Source: Deferrisomatales bacterium (GTDB lineage Bacteria > Desulfobacterota > Deferrisomatia > Deferrisomatales > JACRMM01). Taken from it: a DNA stretch of 17,906 bases. How positions within the stretch are numbered: position 1 is the first letter of the stretch; every line of letters begins with the position of its first letter. Position numbers and translations under genes: made by a program. Location: positions 1-17,906 of the forward strand of contig JAWSUI010000069.1 of the NCBI GenBank assembly GCA_033551855.1, given 5' to 3'. Below, in pieces: positions 2,090-13,361 of the stretch. A model generated the notes under the pieces. The model had not been told where the DNA came from. It was given only the letters and a program-made list of their open reading frames with translations, and did no database searches.

Positions 2090-2290
2090 CCCGTCGCCCT
2101 CACCCTCGAGGGCGACCGGGCCCCTCCGCGGCGGGAACGTCCGACCCTCGGGCGGCGGCCCGGGGTTGCCCGCGGGCGGGGACGCGGAGCTTCCCATCGG
2201 CGAAGGCAACGGGCGCCGCCGCCTTGCCTCGCCGCCGGTATTCGCTAACCTGGCAAACATTGGGTGTCCACTCTCGGGAGGAAACGCCTC

Positions 2291-2515
2291 GTGCGGGGAG
2301 TAGGGATCGCCGTGTTGGGACTCCTGTGGTCCCTGGCCGGATGCGCGGCCGGACCGGCAGCCGTCGCCTTGCCCCCGGGGCATCCCGCCGACCCGGCGGC
2401 CGAGGAGGCCCCCTTCGTGCGACCGGCCAACCCCTTGGCCGAGTCCTTCCCCACCCCGGCCCCGCCCCCACCGAGGGCGGCCCCTCACCCAGGGCACGGG
2501 GGGCACCCGCCGTGA
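2291..2515 (+). CDS. Small Pro/His-rich lipoprotein (74 aa), first gene of the TolC-MCO operon
   Basis: GTG start after GGGAGG; lipobox LAGC; LPPGHPA and C-terminal HPGHGGH; stop overlaps the TolC start (GTGA). Confidence 0.75.
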   Translation: MRGVGIAVLGLLWSLAGCAAGPAAVALPPGHPADPAAEEAPFVRPANPLAESFPTPAPPPPRAAPHPGHGGHPP

Positions 2516-3990
2516 GGGGTACCGTGGCGGCGCTCGGGTCTGCCTTCCTCGCCGCCTGCGCGGCGTGGGGTTCCGGCTGCGCCCACGTCCCTGCCGAAGC
2601 CGGGTTCGGGGACCTCCAGCGAGAGGTGGGGGAGCGGGTCCCCTACTCCGTCGCCTGGCATCGGAACCCGGCCGAGGCCGAGGTGGCGGCACAAGCGGTG
2701 GACGCCCTCCTGGCGGAGCCCCTCACGGCGGACGCCGCCGCGAGGATCGCCCTCCTCAACGACCCGGCCCTCCAGGCCGCCTACGAGGAGCTCGGGGTCG
2801 CCCAGGCCGACGTGGTGCGGGCCGCGCTGCTCCCCAACCCGACCGTGGCGGCCTCGGTGCGCTTCCCCGACGTGGAGCCCCGTCGGCCCAACTGGGACCT
2901 GGGAGTGAGCCAGAGTTTGCTCGACGTGCTCCTCCTCCCGGCTCGGCGGGCGCTGGCCGAGGAGCAGTTCGAGGGGGTGAAGCTCGAAATCGCGGATCGC
3001 GCGCTCGCCACCGCGGCGGGGGCCAAACGGGCCTATTACGAGGTCCTGGGCGCCGCCCAGGTGGCGGCGAGCCGCGCCCAGGCCGCGGAGGCCGCCTCCC
3101 TCGCCCTGGAGCTCGCCCGGAGGACCCACGGGGCCGGGAACCTGAGCGACCTGGAACTGGCCCGAGAGCGGGATCGTGCCGCGGCAGTGCGGGTCGCCTG
3201 GGTCCGAGCCGAGGGCGAGCTGGCGGGCGCCCGGGAAGCATTGAACCGCCGCCTCGGGCTGTGGGGACGGCAGACCGGGTGGACCCTGCCGGCCGGGTTC
3301 CCCGAGCTGCCCGGGGCGGAGCCTCCCCTCGACCGCCTGGAGTCCGAAGCCGTGGTGTCGCGCCTCGACCTGGCAGCGGCCCGCATAGCCGTGGGGGTCC
3401 GGGCGCGCGCCCTGGGGCTCACCGCCGACTGGCGGTGGCTCGGCTCCCTGGAGCTCGGCGCGGGTGCCGAGCGCGAAACCGGGGGAAGGTGGCTCGTGGG
3501 GCCCAACGCCTCGGTGGAGCTCCCCCTCTTCCACCAGCGCCAGCCCCAGCTGGCGGCGGCCGAGGCCCGGCTCCGCCAGAGCCGGCACCAGCTGGCCGCC
3601 CTGGCGGTGCGCGTTCGCTCCGAGGTGCGAGAGGCCCGGGATCGACTCCTGCGCCTCAGGGACCTCGCCGAGCACTACCGGGACGTGGTCCTGCCGCTGC
3701 GGGAAGAGATCGTGACCCTCACCCAGCAGGAGTACAACTACATGCTCGCGAGCCCCTTCGACCTCCTCGCGGCCCGGCGCTCCGAGCTCGAGGCCCGGGA
3801 GGCCTACGCCGAGTCCCTGGCCGGGTACTGGGGGACCCGGGCCGAGCTGGAACGGGCCGTGGGCCGGGAACTGCCGCTCCTCGCACCTGCGCCGGCCCCC
3901 CGTGAGGAAGAGGATCTGGAGGAGTTCTTCCGGGACCTGGAGCCCTCCCCACCGCGAGCGCCCCACCCCCACCACGGAGGCCGACCATGA
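2512..3990 (+). CDS. TolC/outer-membrane efflux family lipoprotein (492 aa)
   Basis: Probable GTG start at 2512; lipobox-like GSGC; OEP features (ALLNDPALQAAYEELGVAQAD, LLPNP, RLDL, ELPLF, FDLLAAR, LERAVG); His-rich tail; ATGA overlap with the MCO. Confidence 0.92.
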   Translation: MRGTVAALGSAFLAACAAWGSGCAHVPAEAGFGDLQREVGERVPYSVAWHRNPAEAEVAAQAVDALLAEPLTADAAARIALLNDPALQAAYEELGVAQADVVRAALLPNPTVAASVRFPDVEPRRPNWDLGVSQSLLDVLLLPARRALAEEQFEGVKLEIADRALATAAGAKRAYYEVLGAAQVAASRAQAAEAASLALELARRTHGAGNLSDLELARERDRAAAVRVAWVRAEGELAGAREALNRRLGLWGRQTGWTLPAGFPELPGAEPPLDRLESEAVVSRLDLAAARIAVGVRARALGLTADWRWLGSLELGAGAERETGGRWLVGPNASVELPLFHQRQPQLAAAEARLRQSRHQLAALAVRVRSEVREARDRLLRLRDLAEHYRDVVLPLREEIVTLTQQEYNYMLASPFDLLAARRSELEAREAYAESLAGYWGTRAELERAVGRELPLLAPAPAPREEEDLEEFFRDLEPSPPRAPHPHHGGRP

Positions 3991-5252
3991 CTCCAGGGCT
4001 CACCCGCCGCCAGATCCTCGCCTCGGCCGCCCTGCTGGCGGGGGCCCCGGGAGCTGCGGGCCTGCTCCGGGAGGCCGCGGCCTCTCCCTCCCGCCCCGCC
4101 GGGCCTTCCGGGGGGCACCTCCCGGTCGTCACCCCCAACGGCAGCACCCTGCCCTGGGCCATGAAGGACGGGGTCAAGGAGTTCCACCTCGTCGCCGAGC
4201 CCGTGGAACGGGAGTTCGCCCCCGGCATGACCGTCAAGGCCTACGGCTACAACGGCCAGACCCCGGGCCCCACGATCGAGGCCGTGGAGGGCGACCGGGT
4301 CCGAATCCTCGTCACCAACCGCCTGCCGAGCCACACCACCATCCACTGGCATGGCGTGCTCCTGCCCAACGGCATGGACGGGGTGGGGGGGCTCAACCAG
4401 CCCCACATCGGGCCGGGGGAGACCTGGGCCTACGAGTTCACCCTGCGCCAGTCCGGCACGCTCATGTACCACCCCCACGCCGACGAGATGCTCCAGCTCG
4501 CGATGGGCATGATGGGTTTCTTCATCGTCCACCCCAGGGAACCCGCCGAGCCTCCGGTAGACCGGGACTTCGCCCTCATGACCCACGCATGGGCGATCCA
4601 TCCGGGCACCTTCCGGCCCGACCCCTCGGTGATGCTCGACTTCAACCTCTTCACCTTCAACAGCGTGGTCTTTCCGACAACCGAGCCCCTGCTGGCGCGC
4701 ACTGGGGACCGGGTTCGCATCCGCCTCGCCAACCTGAGCATGGACGAGCACCCGATCCACATCCACGGCCACCACTTCTGGGTCACCGGCACCGACGCCG
4801 GGCCCCTTCCCCCCACGGCCCGGTGGTCGGAGACCACGGTGCAGGTGCCCGTGGGGACAACCCGGGACATCGAGTTCGTGGCCGACAACCCCGGCGACTG
4901 GGCCTTCCACTGCCACAAGTCCCACCACGTCATGAACCCCATGGCCCACGGCCTCCCGAGCCTCCTGGGCGTGAGCCAGGAGGGGCTGGAGGAACGAATC
5001 GCCGCCCTCGTCCCCGGCTACATGGCGATGGGCGAGACGGGGATGGCCGGGATGCAGGACATGGCGGCCCACATGCCCGGCCCCCGCAACACCCTGCCCA
5101 TGATGATGGGGGAGGGCCCCTTCGGGAACATCGAGATGGGGGGGATGTTCACCATCATCAAGATCCGGGACGACCTGGAGAGCTACGACCGCGACCCGGG
5201 CTGGTACTCCCAGCCCCCGGGGACCGCGACGTACCGGGTGGACGCCGGCTAA
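3987..5252 (+). CDS. Tat-exported two-domain multicopper oxidase with Met-rich C-terminus (421 aa)
   Basis: TRRQIL twin-arginine signal; Cu motifs HWHG, YHPH, HPIHIHGH, HCHKSHHVM (T1 site in domain 2); Met-rich tail. Confidence 0.95.
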   Translation: MTPGLTRRQILASAALLAGAPGAAGLLREAAASPSRPAGPSGGHLPVVTPNGSTLPWAMKDGVKEFHLVAEPVEREFAPGMTVKAYGYNGQTPGPTIEAVEGDRVRILVTNRLPSHTTIHWHGVLLPNGMDGVGGLNQPHIGPGETWAYEFTLRQSGTLMYHPHADEMLQLAMGMMGFFIVHPREPAEPPVDRDFALMTHAWAIHPGTFRPDPSVMLDFNLFTFNSVVFPTTEPLLARTGDRVRIRLANLSMDEHPIHIHGHHFWVTGTDAGPLPPTARWSETTVQVPVGTTRDIEFVADNPGDWAFHCHKSHHVMNPMAHGLPSLLGVSQEGLEERIAALVPGYMAMGETGMAGMQDMAAHMPGPRNTLPMMMGEGPFGNIEMGGMFTIIKIRDDLESYDRDPGWYSQPPGTATYRVDAG

Positions 5253-5471
5253 GACCGTACGCCCAGGCCGCCGCAGCCTCTGCGCCGACCCGCCGGCGCG
5301 CTCTCGGAAGGCTCTCGAGAAGTGTCCGCGAGCTTCGTCCGGCGACCCCGCTTTCCCCCTTCGCCTGCCCCTCGAGGTTCCTGAGGGCCTTCGGAGCCCT
5401 CCCGGCGAAGCCCTCCGCCGTGACATCCGAAGACCCATTCCCCGGCCCCACGGGAGAGGGTATCCTGCGGG

Positions 5472-5509
5472 TGTCGGATTGTCTCCAGAGGAGTGGAGAC
5501 CCCTCTGCA
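5472..5509. promoter_or_regulatory. Paired upstream activator sites for the 5594-5609 promoter
   Basis: TGTCGGATTGTCTCCA-N6-TGGAGACCCCTCTGCA; 86-123 bp from -24; similar to 2053-2089. Confidence 0.55.
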
Positions 5510-5593
5510 GCTCACCCGCTCCCCCGAACCCTCGGGGCCCTCCGTTTCCGAAGAAGACGCCGGAAAGCCAGCGAAGAAGGAGCCGGGCCGTCA

Positions 5594-5609
5594 CGGCACG
5601 GGAGTTGCT
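5594..5609 (+). promoter_or_regulatory. sigma54 promoter for the 5721-8046 unit
   Basis: CGGCACGGGAGTTGCT, near-consensus GGCAC-N5-TTGC. Confidence 0.85.
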
Positions 5610-5720
5610 CCGCTCGACATCACCGGCCGGCGGCGGACCGTCCGGGACATCCCCCCCGGGGAGCCCGGCGGTCCCGCCGGACCGAACGAGGAACTTCGGC
5701 ACCCAGCAAAGGAGCCACAG

Positions 5721-6248
5721 ATGCGCACCTACCGCGGCCTACTCGCTCTCGGAGCGGCCATAGCATGGGCCGTGACCGGATGTGCAACGGTCAGACCCCC
5801 ATCCGCAGACTTGGCCATGACGGACGAGAACACCGGCGAACCGGTTGGCGAGGCGATCCGCCAGGTGTCGGTCGACGGGCACCGGTTCGAGTACTACCTC
5901 ATGGGCTTGCCGGGCTCGGATGCCAGATGGGGCAGCGCCCGGGCCCCGACCAACCACCTGATGCTCTATCTCGGGGACCAGGATGGGAAGACCGTCGCAG
6001 ACGCGCAGGTCCGCTTCACCGTGGCCGATCCCGGCGGGGCGAGCGCCCGAGTCCACGCCTACTACGTGAAGGGGCGCCGGGTGGTCCGGAGCACTCCGCC
6101 GAGAGCCCGCTCGACCGAGGCGGTCGTGATGGAGGGCGGTTACGGGGCGGATCTGAGCCTCAGGGCCCGGGGCGCCCACCGCATCTCCGCGGAAGTGATC
6201 ATGGGGAGCAAGGTGCTCCGAGACGAGTTTGCCTACACGGTAGAGTAG
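5721..6248 (+). CDS. Lipoprotein, possibly YtkA/FixH-like Ig fold (175 aa)
   Basis: ATG 5721 after AAGGAG; lipobox VTGC; TNHLMLYL...DAQVRFTV...MEGGYGADL pattern; the fold call is tentative. Confidence 0.75.
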   Translation: MRTYRGLLALGAAIAWAVTGCATVRPPSADLAMTDENTGEPVGEAIRQVSVDGHRFEYYLMGLPGSDARWGSARAPTNHLMLYLGDQDGKTVADAQVRFTVADPGGASARVHAYYVKGRRVVRSTPPRARSTEAVVMEGGYGADLSLRARGAHRISAEVIMGSKVLRDEFAYTVE

Positions 6249-6400
6249 GCCGGGCAGGCGCCCCGGGACGCCGGAACAGGCGAGCCCCGGATGAGCCGCC
6301 CGTCTCGCTCACTTCAAGCTCCGGGCCGGGGGCGACGAAGAGAGCGCGGTCGGACGGGCGAATCTGGAGCAGGCTCTTTCCTTCGAGGGGAGAATAGAGT

Positions 6401-7651
6401 TTGTCTATTGGTCGCACCGGCAGACGATCCGGCCGCATTCGGGTTCCCGTGCTCCTCCTGCTCCTCGGGCTTGTCCTCTCCGCCGCACACGTGCTCGCCC
6501 ACAGCGAGGCCCACGAGACCGAGGCGGGCCACTCGGCCGTGGGCTTCGGCTACGTGGGCCTGGAGCCCGAGGGCTTGGTGGATCCCGCCGACCTGGAGGA
6601 GTTCACGGAGCGGGTCACGGGGGAAGCCTACGCCAAGGCCCGGCTGGACGGCGTACGGCTGGTCGCCCTGACCCTCGTCCTGGCCGGGGTGTTCGCGGCC
6701 TACGGCGGGGGGCGAAACGCGAGGCCTCGCTGGGGCCGGGCCCTGGAGTGGGATGCCCTGGGGACCACGTGCGGGATGTTGCTGCTCTTCGCCGTCGTCC
6801 CCTCGGGGGCCGCGATCTCCTTTTTCTACAACCCCTCCCCCTGGCAGACTTATGCGAGCGTGGAGGGCATGGCGGCTCGGCCGATTCTCGCGTTCCTGCG
6901 CAACCTGCACACCTGGTCGAGCGAGCTCCTCCTGGCCCTGATGCTCGTCCACGCGGCCAAGACGGTGTCGTCCAAGGGGTATCTGGGGCGCCGCAAGGTG
7001 ATCTGGCTCACCGGCGCCCTCCTCTTCGTCGTGCTCTGGCTCAATTTCGTGGCCGGGAGCTTCCTTCGCGGGGACCAGGAAGCCCTGGAGGGGTTCCAGC
7101 ACGTCATGTACGCCCTCTCGCTAGTGCCGCTGGGGGAGCACGTGGCGAGGTTCTTCTCCGGCGAGCCGGCCGTCATGAGGCTCTTCTCCTCCCACGTGAC
7201 CCTCACGCTGGCCGCGGGTTTTCTGCTCCTGACACTGCACGTGCTCATGCGTCAGGAGTACGTGCACGTCCAGAAGCACTGGAAGGTGGCTCTAGCATAT
7301 TCAGCCGCCCTCGGAGGGCTGCTCGTCCTCCAGAGCACCCTCCAGGAAGCGCCCCTGGTCCGGGGGCTGGCCGCCGGGCCCGCCGTGACCGGGATCGAGA
7401 TCACCAAGCCCCCGTGGCCGCTCTACTTTCTCGTGGCCGGAGAAAACCTCTTCGGCGCGGCCGCCATGGCAGCGGCACCCGTGGTCGTGTTTCTTCCGTT
7501 CGTGCTGTTCCCATACCTGGTGGAGCGCCTCCCGGGGCGAGGGGCCTCTCGGGCGCGGGTGGGGGAGGCCGCCTTCTACGCGGGCTGTCTCGCGATCCTC
7601 GGTCTTTCGCTTTGGGCCGCGGCGAGCCCCATCGTTCCGCACATCTTCTGA
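6401..7651 (+). CDS. Divergent cytochrome b/b6-family membrane protein with His-rich N-terminal extension (start uncertain)
   Basis: Four heme-ligand His in RNLH-x13-H and SSH-x14-H; WLTG and GSFL motifs; KPPWPLY at the PEWY position; TTG start after GGGGAG. Confidence 0.85.
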   Translation: MSIGRTGRRSGRIRVPVLLLLLGLVLSAAHVLAHSEAHETEAGHSAVGFGYVGLEPEGLVDPADLEEFTERVTGEAYAKARLDGVRLVALTLVLAGVFAAYGGGRNARPRWGRALEWDALGTTCGMLLLFAVVPSGAAISFFYNPSPWQTYASVEGMAARPILAFLRNLHTWSSELLLALMLVHAAKTVSSKGYLGRRKVIWLTGALLFVVLWLNFVAGSFLRGDQEALEGFQHVMYALSLVPLGEHVARFFSGEPAVMRLFSSHVTLTLAAGFLLLTLHVLMRQEYVHVQKHWKVALAYSAALGGLLVLQSTLQEAPLVRGLAAGPAVTGIEITKPPWPLYFLVAGENLFGAAAMAAAPVVVFLPFVLFPYLVERLPGRGASRARVGEAAFYAGCLAILGLSLWAAASPIVPHIF

Positions 7652-8046: not shown

Positions 8047-8141
8047 CTTCGGCCCTGCCTGCCCTGCTTTTCCTACGATCAACGATCCCGGACAGCCCTC
8101 CGGGCAATGGCAGCCGGCCGCTCCGGAAGGTGCGCACGGGG

Positions 8142-8305
8142 ATGGTGCGCGAGGGAATGGGGCGAAAAATGCAGATGGAGCGGGGCATGGGTGGTCAGGA
8201 GATGGTGCCCGGCATGATGCAGGGCGGCAGGGTGCCGATGATGCATCAGACTCAGCCGGACACCAGCCCCACGAAGGACACCACCCGGGGAACAAGGCCG
8301 AGTGA
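8142..8305 (+). pseudogene. Remnant of a Met/His-rich metal-binding protein
   Basis: MVREGMGRKMQMERGMGGQEMVPGMMQGGRVPMMHQ, then in a shifted frame AGHQPHEGHHPGNKAE*; no intact N-terminus. Confidence 0.4.
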
Positions 8306-8365
8306 TTGCCGACGGCGGTCGCAGCCCGCGCCGAGCCTTGCTGGTAGTGGGTTGAGGCCCCGGGG

Positions 8366-8545
8366 ATGGGCAGAGAAGCCGTGGTGTACGTCGTGGAGAA
8401 AGCCAAGGGCAGGGAGAACCCGTTTCCGAGGATCGTGATCCTTCTCCCGACCCGACTCCTGGGGAGCTTCCCCGGCCCGAGGACTTGGGATGAGGCCGGC
8501 GAGGTGGAAAAGGCGGTCGGCTCCATGATCACCGACGCCAGGCAG
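8366..8545 (+). pseudogene. Possible remnant of a DUF302-family C-terminus
   Basis: VVYVVEK...IVILLPTRLLGSFPGP..WDEAGEVEKAVGSMITDAR resembles, from memory, the DUF302 C-terminal pattern; the N-terminal half is missing. Confidence 0.3.
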
Positions 8546-8576
8546 AGCGAGGCCGACCACCGTCACGCACCGCTGG

Positions 8577-8790
8577 ATGAGTTGGGATCACGGCACGGGA
8601 TTGGGAGGCTGCGCTTTCACGATCGCCTCCGGGGCGCCGGCCATCTTGGGCGCGGTCTTCCTGATCCGACTCGCATGGGGGGCAAGGCCCGTTCCGGCAC
8701 AGGGTAGAAGCACCGTAGAATTCCCTCGAAATGTGGGAGAAGCGCTATGCCCGGGAGGAGCACGAGCGGACGAAGAGGGAGGTGGAGTGA
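8577..8790 (+). pseudogene. Frameshifted SHOCT-domain small membrane protein
   Basis: MSWDHGTGLGG...ILGAVFLIRLA (degraded TM), then in another frame SLEMWEKRYAREEHERTKREVE*, matching SHOCT (LEILKxRYARGEIxxEEYERxKxxL) but lacking the GEI segment. Confidence 0.6.
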
Positions 8791-9088
8791 ACACGCACCG
8801 CCCCCTTCGGGACGACCAGAGCCAGGAACCTGAGGCGGCCGCCAACGCAGTGGACGGCAGGGCCTTCTGGGGCCGGTTCCAGGGGACTCCAGGCAGCGCC
8901 TGGGCCGACCCCGGGGGCGAGGAGAGATCGCTGTAACTGATGGGGTTCGGCGGCTCGGACCCCACCGGCGCCGGCGAGGTCGTCCATGGAGCAACGTCAC
9001 TCCCTTCGACGGTAGTTTCAGCGGCATCACCTCGGGCCGTCGGGTCGGGGTGCGCCAACCCGGTCCAAACCTGCGCCTTCCTGGGCGC

Positions 9089-9928
9089 TCAGGCATTGCC
9101 CGGCCCGAGGCGACGGAACGCCTCCCAGTCGGGAGGCGAATACCTCTCGCGCTTCCAGCGAAGCCCGGCGTCGCGGATCGCCCCGGGCCGGTCGGCCTCG
9201 AAGAGGAGCCGAAGAGCGCGGTAGAGAACCGCGAAGTGCTCGTCGCGGTTGCCCGCCCTCCCGAGGGCGTGCCCGAAGGGGAAGCGGATAAAGAGGGCCC
9301 GGGGCGGAGGGGTCTTCTCCGTGATTTCTCGAACGATGGAGAGGGAAACGGTGGCAATCCCTTCGGCCTCGATCGCCCGCGCCACCAGTCCCACGGACCG
9401 GTTGCAGGTGCCTCAGGTGGGGACGAGGAGCGCGTAGTCCACCCCCGCCTGGGCGAGCTTTCGGGCCACGGCCGGTGCGGTCTTCGCCACCAGGGTCGCC
9501 AGATGGGGTCCCGCGATGTGGCCCATGAAGCTAAAGGCCACCGGGTGCAGAGTCCCCAGGGCGCCGGCGCCGGCGATCTCGCGCAGCTCCGCCACCGGCA
9601 GGACCAGGCCGAGGTCCTTCTCCGCGTCCCGGTGGTCGTAGTAGTCATGAGTGATGACGAGGGTTTCCCGGGGAGCGTCTACCGGGATGTCCCGGTAGGT
9701 GGGGTCGCCGTTGGGGTCGCGCATATCGAAGGGCTGCTGGGATCCCAGGTGGACACCGCCGGTCGTCACGACGGCCAGCTCCGCCTCCCGCAGGGGCTTT
9801 CGCGGGCGCGTCCACGGGATGGGCTCCCGGTTGGACTCGAGCCTCCGGGCCCAGTGGGCAGCCAGGCTCGGAAAGGCCGTGAAGACCCTCGCCAGGGCTC
9901 GGTTCTTCCAGCCCAGGAACGACCTCAC
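9089..9928 (-). CDS. PrdB/GrdB-family (glycine/sarcosine/betaine/D-proline reductase selenoprotein B-like) selenoprotein, 279 aa, Sec at residue 172
   Basis: ORF-track pieces 9413-10087 and 9089-9394 are in one frame, separated only by TGA at 9413-9415: ALLVPT-U-GTCNRSVGLVARAIEAEGIAT. Family motifs VTTGGVH, GDPTYR, HDYYD, SFMG, PRAL..FPFGHALG. GTG start at 9928 overlaps the ATPase stop. Confidence 0.9.
9376..9412 (-). promoter_or_regulatory. Bacterial SECIS hairpin downstream of the Sec UGA
   Basis: UGA GGCACCUGCA ACCGGUCC GUG GGACUGGU: 8-bp stem (9402-9384, one G-U pair), apical loop starting with GU, 18 nt between UGA and loop. Confidence 0.75.
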
Positions 9929-11100
9929 GGGGCGGCTCGCTTGAGCAGTTGGGCGTTGACCGCCACGATGACGGTGCTGGCCGACATGGGCACCGCCCCC
10001 ACGGCGGGGGTCAGGACGACGCCCCAGGGGGCGAGGGCGCCCGCGGCGAGGGGGATGGCGAACACGTTGTAGCCGGCCGCCCACCACAGATTCTGGACCA
10101 TCTTCCGATACGTCGCCCGCGAAAGGTCGATGATCTTCGGGATGTCGCGCGGGTCCCAGCGCACCAGCACGATGTGCCCGGCTTCCACCGCCACATCGGT
10201 ACCGGCCCCGAGGGCGACCCCGGTGAGGAACTGGGCCGCCCGGTCGGCCAGGTGCTGGGCCCGGGACTTGGACGCCTGGCCGTCGGCCACCAGCCGCATG
10301 ATCCCGGAGAGCCTGGTTTTCTCCCCTGTGCGGGTGACCAGGACGCGCAGCGATCCCTCACCGTTGATCGTTCCCCCGACAATCTCGTCCCCCTCCCGCT
10401 TCTTCACAGGCCGGGACTCGCCGGTGATCGCCGCCTCGTTGACCTCGCTCTGCCCCCTTTGCACCACCCCGTCCGCGCGCACCCCCTCCCCCGGGCGGAT
10501 GAGGACCACGTCCCCGTCCCGGAGCTCTTCAACCGGCACCCGTTCTTCCCGGTCGCCGGTGACGCGGGTGGCGCTGTCCGGGAGGAGCCTGGCCAGTTCC
10601 TTGAGCGCGCCCCGGGCCTGGTCGATCGACCGCATCTCGATCCAGTGCCCGAGGAGCATGATGGTCACCAGCGTGGACACCTCCCACCACAGGACCCCCG
10701 CCTGGATGAGTCCGATCTGCACGGCCCAGGAGAAGACGAACGCCACCAGGATGGCCAGCGAGATGAGGGTCATCATCCCCGGGAGGCGTCCCCGGAGCTC
10801 CCGCCAAGCCCCCTGGAGGAAGACCCACCCCCCGTAGCCGAACACCGCCGTGCCCAGGAGCGGCGGGATCCAGGCCGACCCCGGGAAGTCGGGTGACCGG
10901 TAGCCCAGCAGCATCTGAACGTGCTCCGACCAGAAGACCACCGGGAGCGTGAGCAGAAGGGAGAGCCAGAACTTGTCTCGAAACATTTCGGGGCGGTGGC
11001 CCGCGTGCTTGTCGTGGCCCGCGTGGGTGCCGCCGTGGTGCGCGTGGGCTGTGGTGGCGACGCCCGCAGGGTGTTGGTGGCGGTGTCTCGCGTCGGCCAT
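9925..11100 (-). pseudogene. copB: CopB-type (P1B-3) copper ATPase with in-frame deletion of the catalytic core
   Basis: His-rich N-terminus, PGMMTLISL, LLGHWIEM, TGES, and C-terminal GYN and MSAST are present. CPH, DKTGT and GDGxND are all absent; the sequence jumps at FLTGVALGAG|TDVAVEAG. Confidence 0.88.
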
Positions 11101-11368
11101 CGGGAATCCTTTTGCTCGGGTCGCGCGGATGGAGTCGGTCCGGGGGAAGGGTACCGCGTGGGCGGGGGATTGTCATGGGCCAAGGGTTTGTCTTCTGCTC
11201 ACTCCCTCGGAGCCGGATTCGCCGGAAACTGGTTTCCTGGTGGATTCCGGCAGGGCAGAGCGCGCCGCGCCGTCCTCGGACGGCTGGGGGACGCCCGGGG
11301 CAGCCAATCCCGGGTGGCTTGGGCGAGCCGGCGCCGACAGCGGCGTCCCGGTGCCCTGTCGGTCGAGC

Positions 11369-11671
11369 TCAGAGTTTCGGTTGGCGAGGAGCGCAGCTCG
11401 TCTTGGTGGTAGCCTGGGGTCGTTCGTCGCCGGAACCGGATGGGCGGAGGCCGCCCGCGGTGTGTGGGGGGGGGGAGTCCTGTCGGATACTCCACAGGAG
11501 CGCCTCGGATCCCCCTCTCCGGGATCCGGACCCCGCCACCAGGGGTGCCCCCTGGCAGATCTTGTGGGCGCCGATCACGACCCGGTACGCCGCCGGAGTC
11601 GCGACCGTCTGCACGCCGAACTTTATAAGAAGGCCCTCCTCCACGACCGAGACCACCTTTGCTTCGCTCAC
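11369..11671 (-). CDS. Hypothetical protein (100 aa) downstream of a sigma54 promoter, possibly truncated
   Basis: GTG start after AGGAAGGTGAA, about 40 nt past the promoter; the first 45 aa look protein-like and the rest is low complexity with a 10-nt homopolymer. Confidence 0.4.
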   Translation of the reverse strand: MSEAKVVSVVEEGLLIKFGVQTVATPAAYRVVIGAHKICQGAPLVAGSGSRRGGSEALLWSIRQDSPPPHTAGGLRPSGSGDERPQATTKTSCAPRQPKL

Positions 11672-11712
11672 ACTTCACCTTCCTGCGTGGAGATTGTGAT
11701 TGGATGGGGCCT

Positions 11713-11729
11713 CGCACGGGCCATGCCAA
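11713..11729 (-). promoter_or_regulatory. sigma54 promoter pointing toward the 100-aa ORF, copB and selenoprotein genes
   Basis: Minus strand TTGGCATGGCCCGTGCG (GG-N10-GC). Confidence 0.7.
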
Positions 11730-11814
11730 CGAGCGGTTCGGGAGAGAGCCTCGTGGGAGCGAAGGGATAGGCGCGAGCAACGAGGGGTCCCGACACCGAG
11801 AGAGAGGAGCAGGA

Positions 11815-11851
11815 TGGCGATAATTCGACACAAGCGGGCGACTACTGCTCA
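11815..11851. promoter_or_regulatory. Paired upstream activator sites for the 11713-11729 promoter
   Basis: TGGCGATAATTCGACA-N5-GGGCGACTACTGCTCA; the first site is 13/16 identical to the reverse complement of 5472-5487; 88-124 bp from -24. Confidence 0.55.
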
Positions 11852-12031
11852 GCGAGCGGCTTCGCAGTCGTGCGTTCGGTGATGGGAAGGCTAGACGTGC
11901 AGGAGGGTCCGTCGAGGCCGGGCCGGCCTGGGAAAATCCGTCTCCAGAGACGGCGGCGCGCCGGACGGAGGGGGTTACGTGATACGGGGCGGGACGGGGA
12001 AAGCCAGGGAGGCTGGCCTCCGGGCCGGTGG

Positions 12032-13051
12032 CTATCGGGTACAAGAGTACGGAGAAGGAGCCCTCCCACTGGCGCTCCGGCGAGAGTCCGGGGGGGATGC
12101 GACCCCGTTCCCTGCTCCTGAGGGAAGCGAAGCCAGGTACTCCCAGAACCCGGCGAGCAACTCACCATCGAGTCTCTTCCCGGCCAACTCGTCCATGGTG
12201 CGGCGAATACGCTCCTCCCGCAACGCCTCCTTGTAGGGGCGAACGTGACGGAGGGCGTCGTAGGTGTCTGCGATGGCCAGGACCCGCGCCGGCAGCGGGA
12301 TCTCGGCGCCTCTCACCCCCTCGGGATAGCCTGTGCCGTCGACGTTCTCGTGATGGGCGGCGACGTAGCGCACCACCTTCTCGAACCCGACGGGGGCGAG
12401 GATCCGTTCGGCGAGGCGGGGGTGGTCCATGATCCTCCGGCGCTCCTCCGGGGTGAGCTTCTCGGGCTTCAGGAGGACGTCGTCCCGGATCCCGATCTTG
12501 CCCACATCGTGCATGATTCCGGCCAGGTAGAGACTGTGGGCCTCGCGGCGCGGCAGCCCGAGAAACGAGGCGAATCCCTCGGAGAGGACCGCCACGCGCC
12601 GGGAGTGCTCGCCGGTCTCGGGGTCACGGACGCTCAGGCTCTCCGCCAGGGCGGCCACGGCCGTTCCGACCCTCTCCCTCTCGGCCCGACGCTCGGACCG
12701 AAGCGCTCGCTGGCGGGCCCGGCGCTCGAGGGTCGAGAGAGCGCCGGCCACCGAGGCCAGGACGAAGAAGCTCACCAGCGCTCCGGCCTGCTCCACGCGC
12801 CACGAGAGCCCGGGGGCACCCTGGAGCCACTGGTGGACCGCGTAGGAGGCAGCCGCAGCCGCAGCCGTGGCCAAGGCGCCGGCGGCGCCGAACCAGACCG
12901 CCGCCGCGACGATGGGCAAGAAGTACAGCTCCCGAAGGAACACGTGTCCGGCGTGAGCCCAGTGGCCGGCCGTCGGGGTCGCAAGGTGGAGCCCCGTAAC
13001 GCCCAGGAACAGGCACGAAACCGCGAGCGCCCGCCGGCGGCCCGGGGTCAC
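12032..13051 (-). CDS. Membrane-anchored HD-GYP phosphodiesterase with His-rich (DUF4118-like) TM sensor domain (339 aa)
   Basis: N-terminal TMs with LHLATPTAGHWAHAGHVFLRELYFLPI; HD-GYP motifs RDPETGEHSRRV, HDVGK, HHENVDGTGYP, IADTYDAL, RPYK. Confidence 0.92.
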   Translation of the reverse strand: MTPGRRRALAVSCLFLGVTGLHLATPTAGHWAHAGHVFLRELYFLPIVAAAVWFGAAGALATAAAAAASYAVHQWLQGAPGLSWRVEQAGALVSFFVLASVAGALSTLERRARQRALRSERRAERERVGTAVAALAESLSVRDPETGEHSRRVAVLSEGFASFLGLPRREAHSLYLAGIMHDVGKIGIRDDVLLKPEKLTPEERRRIMDHPRLAERILAPVGFEKVVRYVAAHHENVDGTGYPEGVRGAEIPLPARVLAIADTYDALRHVRPYKEALREERIRRTMDELAGKRLDGELLAGFWEYLASLPSGAGNGVASPPDSRRSASGRAPSPYSCTR

Positions 13052-13076
13052 CGAGCGAGCTCCGTGCGAAGAGGCG

Positions 13077-13361
13077 TCATAGGAGGAGCACGAGCCCCAT
13101 CATGACGGCCATGGCCGCCCCCATGGCCCAGGCCCACGCGCTTCGGTGGTGCCCCATGGTACCCCCGTGCCCCTCCTGGTGAGATTCCGACGGTGACGGG
13201 TCGGGCCGGTCCGCTTCCCCGGGCACCCGAGCCTCCCCCGGAGGAGGCGGGGCGAGTTGCACGCTCGCCCGCGGTGCCTCCCGGTGATGGTGGAGCGGAG
13301 CACACCCGGCGGCAGCCGTCAGGACCGCGACAAGCGCGAGGGTTCGCACCACAGAGCTCAT
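13077..13361 (-). CDS. His/Met-rich lipoprotein with C-terminal hydrophobic helix (94 aa)
   Basis: ATG 13361 after GGAGGAG, ATGA-coupled to the upstream ORF; lipobox AAGC; HHH, HQEGHGGTMGHH; tail WAWAMGAAMAVMMGLVLLL. Confidence 0.7.
   Translation of the reverse strand: MSSVVRTLALVAVLTAAAGCAPLHHHREAPRASVQLAPPPPGEARVPGEADRPDPSPSESHQEGHGGTMGHHRSAWAWAMGAAMAVMMGLVLLL

Follow-up and report, generated by a model that had tools for sequence, protein, structure and literature searches.

A contig of 17,906 nucleotides from a Deferrisomatales bacterium (JAWSUI010000069.1 of assembly GCA_033551855.1; this whole stretch is referred to as the window) encodes on its minus strand a stand-alone selenocysteine (Sec) protein related to PrdB, the Sec subunit of D-proline reductase. 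The gene consists of a single reading frame with one in-frame TGA, which is followed by a covarying hairpin and is retained in every close relative that we collected, and the genome holds the genes for Sec incorporation. On balance, we favour the view that the protein, which would share the PrdB/GrdB fold, is a cytoplasmic selenol/thiol reductase, likely serving copper (soft-metal) stress rather than amino-acid fermentation.

The reading frame and its Sec codon

Translation of 9928..9089 with TGA read as Sec (U) yields 279 residues and a single internal TGA at codon 172 (9415-9413), in the context LLVPT-U-GTCNRS. The initial annotation had described this frame, broken only by the TGA in VPT-U-GTC and with homology on both sides, and its coordinates proved exact. 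The NCBIfam model TIGR04483 (PrdB) matches residues 39-251 and crosses the TGA (model positions 20-227 of 238; E = 4.6e-43), with a score of 147.4 bits that lies below the curated cut-off of 300 bits for this equivalog. Residues 35-171 match the Pfam family GRDB (PF07355; model positions 212-347) at 31 bits, above the gathering cut-off of 22, and the protein B models TIGR01917, TIGR01918, NF040794 and NF040795 score 42.9-48.6 bits, below their cut-offs of 65-800 (TIGR01918, 48.6 bits; the GrdF and GrdH models, E ~1e-12). The GTG start codon (9928-9926) agrees with the N-termini of homologues and overlaps, within the sequence GTGA, the TGA stop codon that closes the ATPase frame upstream (9927-9925), just as had been proposed for a copB stop. 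The GC content at third codon positions (GC3) is steady at 0.84-0.89 across both halves of the gene. Gene callers split it at the TGA, as anticipated, and most database matches are fragments of ~170 residues that end there.

About 40 invariant residues are spread over the chain (alignment A3), for example in THDYYDHxDAExD, MGH and PFGHxLG, and include Cys175, the second residue of the U-x-x-C motif. The AlphaFold2 model is an alpha/beta structure with a predicted local distance difference test score (pLDDT) of 92.4, and the N-terminus does not resemble a signal peptide. Neither the protein itself nor a profile of 37 sequences retrieved a solved relative from the PDB below E = 0.29, and Foldseek found no match to the model in the PDB at E <= 0.001. 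A wide fold search with VIA-align gave generic Rossmann-like three-layer alpha/beta matches only (Z up to 8.7), without a functional lead. The same genome encodes two further PrdB-like paralogues with one in-frame TGA each, at G000:C9:85712-86404 (locus L114; 37% identity) and G000:C3:2845-3546 (L115; 35% identity). The L114 copy lies near a GH15-DUF547 protein, and DUF547 also immediately precedes the gene in six Chloroflexus loci; the L115 copy adjoins a 722-residue NADH:flavin oxidoreductase (Oxidored_FMN).

The hairpin begins ten nucleotides 3′ of the UGA. Its folding on its own is unremarkable (z = -1.26; 19 of 200 shuffles fold equally well). To assess covariation, 69 nucleotides from 82 homologues were aligned, so that the eight stem pairs amount to 656 cells; 97.4% of these are paired, and in three of the pairs both partners are substituted (43 cells). 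Pair 18-34 is UA in 50 and CG in 27 homologues, pair 21-31 is GC in 71 and AU in 11, and pair 22-30 is UA in 68 and AU in 5. None of 500 shuffles matched the covariation score, and slid registers pair in 6-54%. Since pair 18-34 joins a synonymous third position of an Asn codon with the first position of a Val or Ile codon, the pairing is not merely a by-product of protein conservation. Bacterial Sec insertion sequences (SECIS) carry a G in the apical loop; the window's hairpin, with its loop GUG, its compensatory changes and its position shortly 3′ of the UGA, has the features of such an element, and the SECIS-like hairpin initially suspected from one sequence is thereby upheld. An Rfam scan of the whole window matched no family.

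The genome of the window (G000; 4.24 Mb in 132 contigs, 100% complete) contains all of the Sec genes that the initial annotation had asked to be confirmed, with selB at 339 bits, selA at 573 bits, selD at 367 bits and the tRNA-Sec at 70.9 bits. Its selD (G000:C50:3310-4233, L010) holds one in-frame TGA, and SelD is thus probably a selenoprotein itself in this genome. TGA stands at the Sec column in all 22 matches that cover it among 31 related genomes, in all 80 genome loci (76 recognized by pattern and 4 by eye) and in all 80 metagenome loci (72 and 8, respectively). The latter two sets, the window and five loci from the related genomes make up the 166 loci considered below. A profile search of 1.84 billion representatives returned 3,618 matches at E <= 0.001; among the best 150 of them, 69 stop at the Sec column and 78 span it, the spanning ones with Cys in 52, Ser in 10, Gly in 7, Trp in 3 and other residues in 6. 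Judged by these sequences, the close relatives always have Sec, and the distant full-length ones mostly have Cys, largely as C-x-x-C.

Gly occupies the column in six full-length proteins from the Joint Genome Institute (JGI), and full-length family proteins with Gly, Trp or Ser there include P0004-P0010, P0123 and P0124. DNA for the Gly forms from JGI was sought among the collected loci, where none was found at >= 90% identity. Our guess is that the Gly and Trp forms are TGA codons translated under tables 25 and 4.

Genomic contexts of the family

The domain PF09338 (GrdE/PrdA) is not matched in the window's genome, whereas the same search matches strongly, up to 574 bits, in 4 of the 151 phylum genomes searched, which serve as a positive control. 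It is likewise without a match in G005, G010, G012, G025 and G028, all of which, like G000, carry the selenoprotein gene. PF04723 (GrdA) was not found in the window's genome by a search that had no positive control, and no prd or grd domain occurs among the 168 neighbour proteins scanned. The claim that the gene stands alone, initially made for the window, thus extends to the genome. Given the PrdB score below the cut-off and the failure to find a PrdA/GrdE or GrdA gene, we conclude that the selenoprotein is not a Stickland subunit.

Copper genes recur beside the relatives. In a first test, the window's ATPase had relatives in only 2 of 80 loci, as if the link were a one-off, an impression that was reversed with a wider panel and the metagenome loci. 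This panel, drawn up after Pfam annotation had revealed copper genes of several other kinds among the neighbours in the window's own clade and run over the 166 loci, comprised three ATPases, two multicopper oxidases (MCO), two HMA proteins, one FtrD-like protein and one YHS protein. A P1B ATPase, MCO, HMA, FtrD-like or YHS gene is present in 26 loci, in 24 of them within 3 kb and in 19 within 1 kb. Normalized for flank, the density of copper genes per 100 kb is 6.8 up to 1 kb from the gene and 2.3-2.4 in the second and third kilobases, and at 3-8 kb there are 7 such genes in 790.7 kb, an approximately eightfold drop past 3 kb. As background, the window's genome has eight panel regions, and 1.7% of its bases lie within 3 kb of one. 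On a quick FastTree phylogeny of the 166 proteins (160 of them distinct, as near-identical loci were included), no fewer than 17 changes are required to account for the copper label (24 loci with it, 111 without, 31 too short for scoring). The minimum is 15 when only ATPase, MCO and HMA genes are counted, and 12 for ATPase or MCO genes within 1.5 kb.

The arrangements vary from clade to clade. CopA precedes the selenoprotein gene on the same strand with an 18-nt gap in L106, and in L109 the gene is followed by an overlapping MCO. The orders are Metal_resist-SHOCT-YHS-gene-CopA in L167, gene-DUF2914-CopA in L186, CopA-x-gene in L150, CopA-cytochrome c-methyltransferase-gene in L163 and L149, and outer-membrane efflux protein (OEP)-MCO-cyclase-gene-DsbD-like (DsbD_TM-thioredoxin) in L152. 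A divergent HMA-FtrD-FtsX-ABC cluster accompanies the gene in L030, L040, L116, L119, L131 and L132. The ATPases at these other loci are CopA-type (CPC; YHS, HMBD or HMA domains) and ~37% identical to the CopB-type frame of the window. Copper genes are thus far commoner beside the relatives than further out in the same loci or across the window's genome. The MCO of L109 (G007:C2, 7194-10324) is a large secreted protein whose C-terminus runs several hundred residues past the oxidase domains, an extension that may be a fused outer-membrane partner. Isolates among the loci are Geomonas limicola and G. silvestris (L031, L032), Geothermobacter hydrogeniphilus (L093), Chloroflexus islandicus (L084) and Oscillochloris sp. 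(L044); the copper-linked loci observed all come from sources other than isolates.

A second recurrent neighbour is a two-domain rhodanese, which in 23 of the 166 loci precedes the gene by 56-802 nt in the same orientation. It is concentrated in a Desulfuromonadales clade (21 of 34 rows, 79-802 nt upstream) and occurs also upstream in L034 and L039 of the window's own clade; in L108, genes for sulfur trafficking (sulfite-reductase-like, TusA and ThiF) lie 3′ of the selenoprotein gene. An S-adenosylmethionine (SAM)-dependent methyltransferase (Methyltransf_25/11/31) stands directly before or after the gene in L163 (2043-2627), L149 (500-1084) and L029 (9536-10246). It overlaps the start of the selenoprotein gene in L163 and L149, and an ArsR-type regulator is nearby in L029, which hints at a metalloid-methylation context.

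The initial annotation had named three observations that would tell against it: a genome lacking Sec machinery, a column lacking Cys or Sec in homologues, and exclusive linkage of these to prdA or grd operons. None of the three was made.

The ATPase remnant and the copper island

The initial annotation had placed the selenoprotein gene in a copper ATPase operon. The arrangement and the overlap are real, but the CopB-type P1B ATPase is a remnant of 391 residues without a catalytic core. The His-rich N-terminal part survives, as do the A domain and the final helices, but the frame is devoid of the CPH motif of transmembrane helix 4 (TM4), of DKTGT, of the N domain and of GDGxND, ~297 residues having been lost in frame: the sequence passes from LADRAAQFLTGVAL directly into GAGTDVAVEAGHIVL and then into the last helices. 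An intact paralogue at C20:2629-4698 is 74% and 84% identical to the two retained parts, and its CPH, DKTGT and GDGVND motifs fall within the ~297 residues missing from the window copy. The model TIGR01511 scores 303 bits on the remnant, against a cut-off of 397. With its catalytic motifs lost, the remnant cannot pump, and the pair does not form a functional copper-ATPase operon.

A 12,560-nt contig that was assembled independently from a public run spans the same junction. The deletion is therefore no artefact of one assembly; the run may be the source sample. Over 8800-11400, 12 substitutions and an 18-nt in-frame indel separate this contig from the window; the indel sits in the His-rich N-terminus of the remnant. 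The strain differences, too few to test, are five non-synonymous and one synonymous in the remnant and two and one, respectively, in the selenoprotein gene. The remnant frame is still open, with a GC3 of ~0.9, and looks unconstrained. No operator-like motif is common to the sequences that precede the remnant and its intact paralogue. Four terminator-like sites lie in 8300-13300 (1.7 expected), none of them sensibly placed.

The selenoprotein gene lies inside a copper island that comprises the OEP gene, the MCO gene, the CopB remnant and the HD-GYP gene. On the opposite strand, the run 2224-7651 looks like a transferred copper island (Table 1). The nearest relative of the window in the tree is the metagenome-assembled genome (MAG) locus L030 from Geobacter, and MCO, OEP and HD-GYP genes are common to both, which points to the island having moved as a block. 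The window's MCO and OEP are 77.5% and 50% identical, respectively, to genes by the closest orthologue in Geobacter MAGs (L030, L119); the GC content is 69% in the window and 56% in the L030 and L119 loci. An HD-GYP gene of the kind found upstream of the remnant lies directly 3′ of the selenoprotein gene in L030 (8919-9956), L119 (8843-9910) and L120 (1564-2448). In L119, the start of this DUF4118 + HD-GYP gene (cyclic di-GMP phosphodiesterase-like) overlaps the selenoprotein stop; as the window's genome holds ~11 such genes, adjacency by chance is possible. The stretches on either side of the remnant-selenoprotein pair, ~930 nt (11100-12030) and ~1 kb (~8050-9089), have no frame-specific GC3 signal and no family match, and tblastx of syntenic loci against the window recognised no gene remnants in them. 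Gene decay may account for these stretches, or they may be long leader regions.

Table 1 Positions of the features discussed, in window coordinates
Feature	Position	Strand	Remarks
PrdB-like selenoprotein gene	9928..9089, including stop	minus	279 codons plus stop; GTG start
UGA codon 172 (U of U-G-T-C)	9413..9415	minus	TGA at this column in 166/166 related loci
Cys175 codon, second residue of U-x-x-C	9404..9406	minus	invariant in alignment A3
SECIS hairpin	9384..9402	minus	8-bp stem 9402-9395 / 9391-9384; loop GUG 9394-9392
CopB-type P1B ATPase remnant, 391 residues	9925..11100	minus	stop overlaps selenoprotein start
Deletion junction AQFLTGVAL/GAGTDVA	10216..10236	minus	short G-V/I-A-I/L similarity in intact paralogue
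OEP gene	2224..3990	plus	same island
MCO gene	3987..5252	plus	77.5% identical to MCO near closest orthologue (L030, L119); same island
Lipoprotein-like frame, no family	within 5493-6248	plus	same-strand run 2224-7651
Cytochrome b-like membrane protein	6401-7651	plus	same-strand run 2224-7651
DUF4118 + HD-GYP gene	12032..13051	minus	upstream of remnant; same strand as selenoprotein gene

Proposed function and its alternatives

In the mechanism that we propose, SelB would read the UGA as Sec, and Sec172 and Cys175 would cycle between the selenol/thiol and the selenenyl-sulfide states, as PrdB is thought to do. The substrate would be a sulfur- or metal-thiolate species that accumulates under Cu(I) stress, rather than proline on a pyruvoyl partner. 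Candidates are a Cu(I)-thiolate adduct and a persulfide delivered by a rhodanese, and re-reduction would fall to a thioredoxin-type donor. As no pyruvoyl partner was found, the substrate is expected to be something other than that of PrdB; and with the adjacent ATPase dead, the selenoprotein gene would now depend on whatever promoter still drives the remnant. Copper-resistance loci encode accessory proteins for thiol redox chemistry with C-x-x-C motifs, such as Scs proteins and DsbD-type reductases. The analogy is one of working only, as these are periplasmic and have unrelated folds, whereas the window protein uses Sec and has an N-terminus unlike a signal peptide. More tentatively, we extend the proposal to the family: stand-alone 'PrdB' selenoproteins may quite possibly be Sec-dependent cytoplasmic reductases that have been recruited repeatedly to copper-export and oxidase loci, and to rhodanese loci elsewhere, the window showing such an island with its ATPase in decay.

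Several observations weigh against a role in copper stress. Of the 135 loci whose flanks reach at least 3 kb, 111 have no copper gene within that distance, and none was found there in the Chloroflexi clade (31 rows) or in the Desulfuromonadales rhodanese clade (34 rows); copper is therefore not the only context of the family. The panel was drawn from genes of these same loci, and its background is a single genome. Within the window, the defective ATPase and the 5:1 ratio of its strain differences indicate that the local operon is decaying, and a promoter scan of 8300-13300 returned no promoter-like site; the sequencing runs listed included none of RNA. Islands can also carry passengers, and the MCO, the OEP and the selenoprotein gene seem to have moved together. 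The chemistry, finally, is modelled on PrdB and on the motif alone, no solved relative having been found. The role in metal stress that the initial annotation put forward gains from the recurrence of copper genes beside relatives, a gain that comes from these relatives and not from the window gene itself; the specific roles that it named, a Se/S metal ligand or a thiol repair enzyme, would be candidates.

The same observations could be explained by a general cytoplasmic redox selenoenzyme without a metal role, its copper adjacency arising from shared mobile or stress islands or from sampling. We consider this unlikely, yet it deserves attention: beside the many loci free of copper genes, the neighbours are mixed (tRNA synthetases, ribonuclease D, HSP20, 3′-phosphoadenosine-5′-phosphosulfate (PAPS) reductase, methyltransferases, radical SAM proteins), the window island, with an MCO so close to that of the Geobacter MAG, looks block-transferred, and L035 has an integrase close to the gene. 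What speaks for a tie to copper is that copper genes are densest within 1 kb of the gene and thin out past 3 kb in the very same loci, that the association arises at no fewer than 15 places in the tree with non-orthologous ATPases and varied gene orders, and that the frames overlap or nearly touch in several of the copper arrangements. The main mechanistic rival within a copper context is a Cu(I)/soft-metal buffer or chaperone with Sec172 and Cys175 as ligands, like the C-x-x-C of CopZ and HMA proteins, a role that the initial annotation had also put forward. The gene indeed adjoins CopA-type genes on one side or the other, a position often occupied by copZ-like genes (L106, L144, L150, L167, L186), and Sec is kept throughout the 166 loci. 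The protein, however, is an alpha/beta protein of 279 residues with some 40 dispersed invariant positions, a pattern that resembles the pocket of an enzyme, and its homology runs the length of the catalytic subunit PrdB. Many loci, moreover, have a rhodanese or no metal gene at all, and we regard mere metal binding as distinctly improbable.

Two further explanations carry very little weight. PrdB is the best family match of the protein, and its database relatives are named 'D-proline reductase (dithiol) PrdB', a heading under which reviews also list the family in their passages on it; a true B subunit of a D-proline or glycine-type reductase, with partners encoded elsewhere or missed, is nonetheless very hard to reconcile with a score of about half the cut-off, with the failure to detect PF09338 and PF04723 in a complete genome although the PF09338 search works elsewhere in the phylum, and with three paralogues in this genome for which no partner was found and scanned neighbours free of prd and grd genes. 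Even less credible is a TGA that acts as a real stop between two separate genes or the halves of a broken one. It is how gene callers report the two pieces, but it is contradicted by the invariant TGA, the homology on both sides of it, the covarying hairpin, the complete Sec machinery and the undiminished GC3 through both pieces. On the basis of these considerations, we retain the cytoplasmic reductase for copper stress as the favoured reading.

The family itself is not new. It has been catalogued as 'Proline reductase PrdB' selenoproteins (UxxC, pfam07355) since 2005, when Zhang, Fomenko and Gladyshev counted 42 genes in the Sargasso Sea according to the relevant passages (PMC1088965). The corresponding sections of later surveys give 235 selenoproteins and 110 Cys homologues in the GOS data (Zhang and Gladyshev 2008; PMC2398784) and list Anaeromyxobacter dehalogenans and Geobacter uraniumreducens (Zhang et al. 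2006; PMC1794560). Two recent reviews, in the passages concerned, keep the family under D-proline reductase (PMC13188914, PMC9312934). These environmental proteins share pfam07355, UxxC and SECIS in the absence of Stickland genes, and the window gene belongs with them; in the parts of these papers that deal with them they are filed as proline reductase, and neither the missing partner nor a copper or rhodanese context is discussed. In the literature searched, passages of two reviews included, no link of the family to copper or rhodanese was found. The gene is thus an ordinary member of a family known since 2005, and its split annotation is a known gene-caller artefact.

Clostridial PrdB is homologous to the window protein, with Sec at the matching place in U-x-x-C and a SECIS immediately downstream, and the selenol/thiol pair is likely the working part of both. 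The window protein differs in scoring only half the PrdB cut-off and in having ~38 extra N-terminal and 29 extra C-terminal residues; its genome has no detected PrdA partner or prd operon, and the neighbours of the family are copper, rhodanese or unrelated genes. GrdB, GrdF and GrdH belong to the same superfamily (PF07355) and match the window protein more weakly. In contrast to it, they comprise ~430 residues with an extra N-terminal half, need GrdA and GrdE, and carry UxxCxxC, as stated in a review passage (PMC13188914).

Stand-alone 'PrdB' selenoproteins are among the most abundant in environmental data, and outside Stickland fermenters the family has no assigned function. Their recurrent, clade-independent placement by CopA-type ATPases, MCO and HMA genes, and elsewhere by rhodanese genes, provides a concrete hypothesis on that function. 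If it is true, the use of selenium would be linked to the detoxification of soft metals and sulfane sulfur, and copper tolerance in anaerobes such as the relatives of Geobacter would carry an added requirement for selenium.

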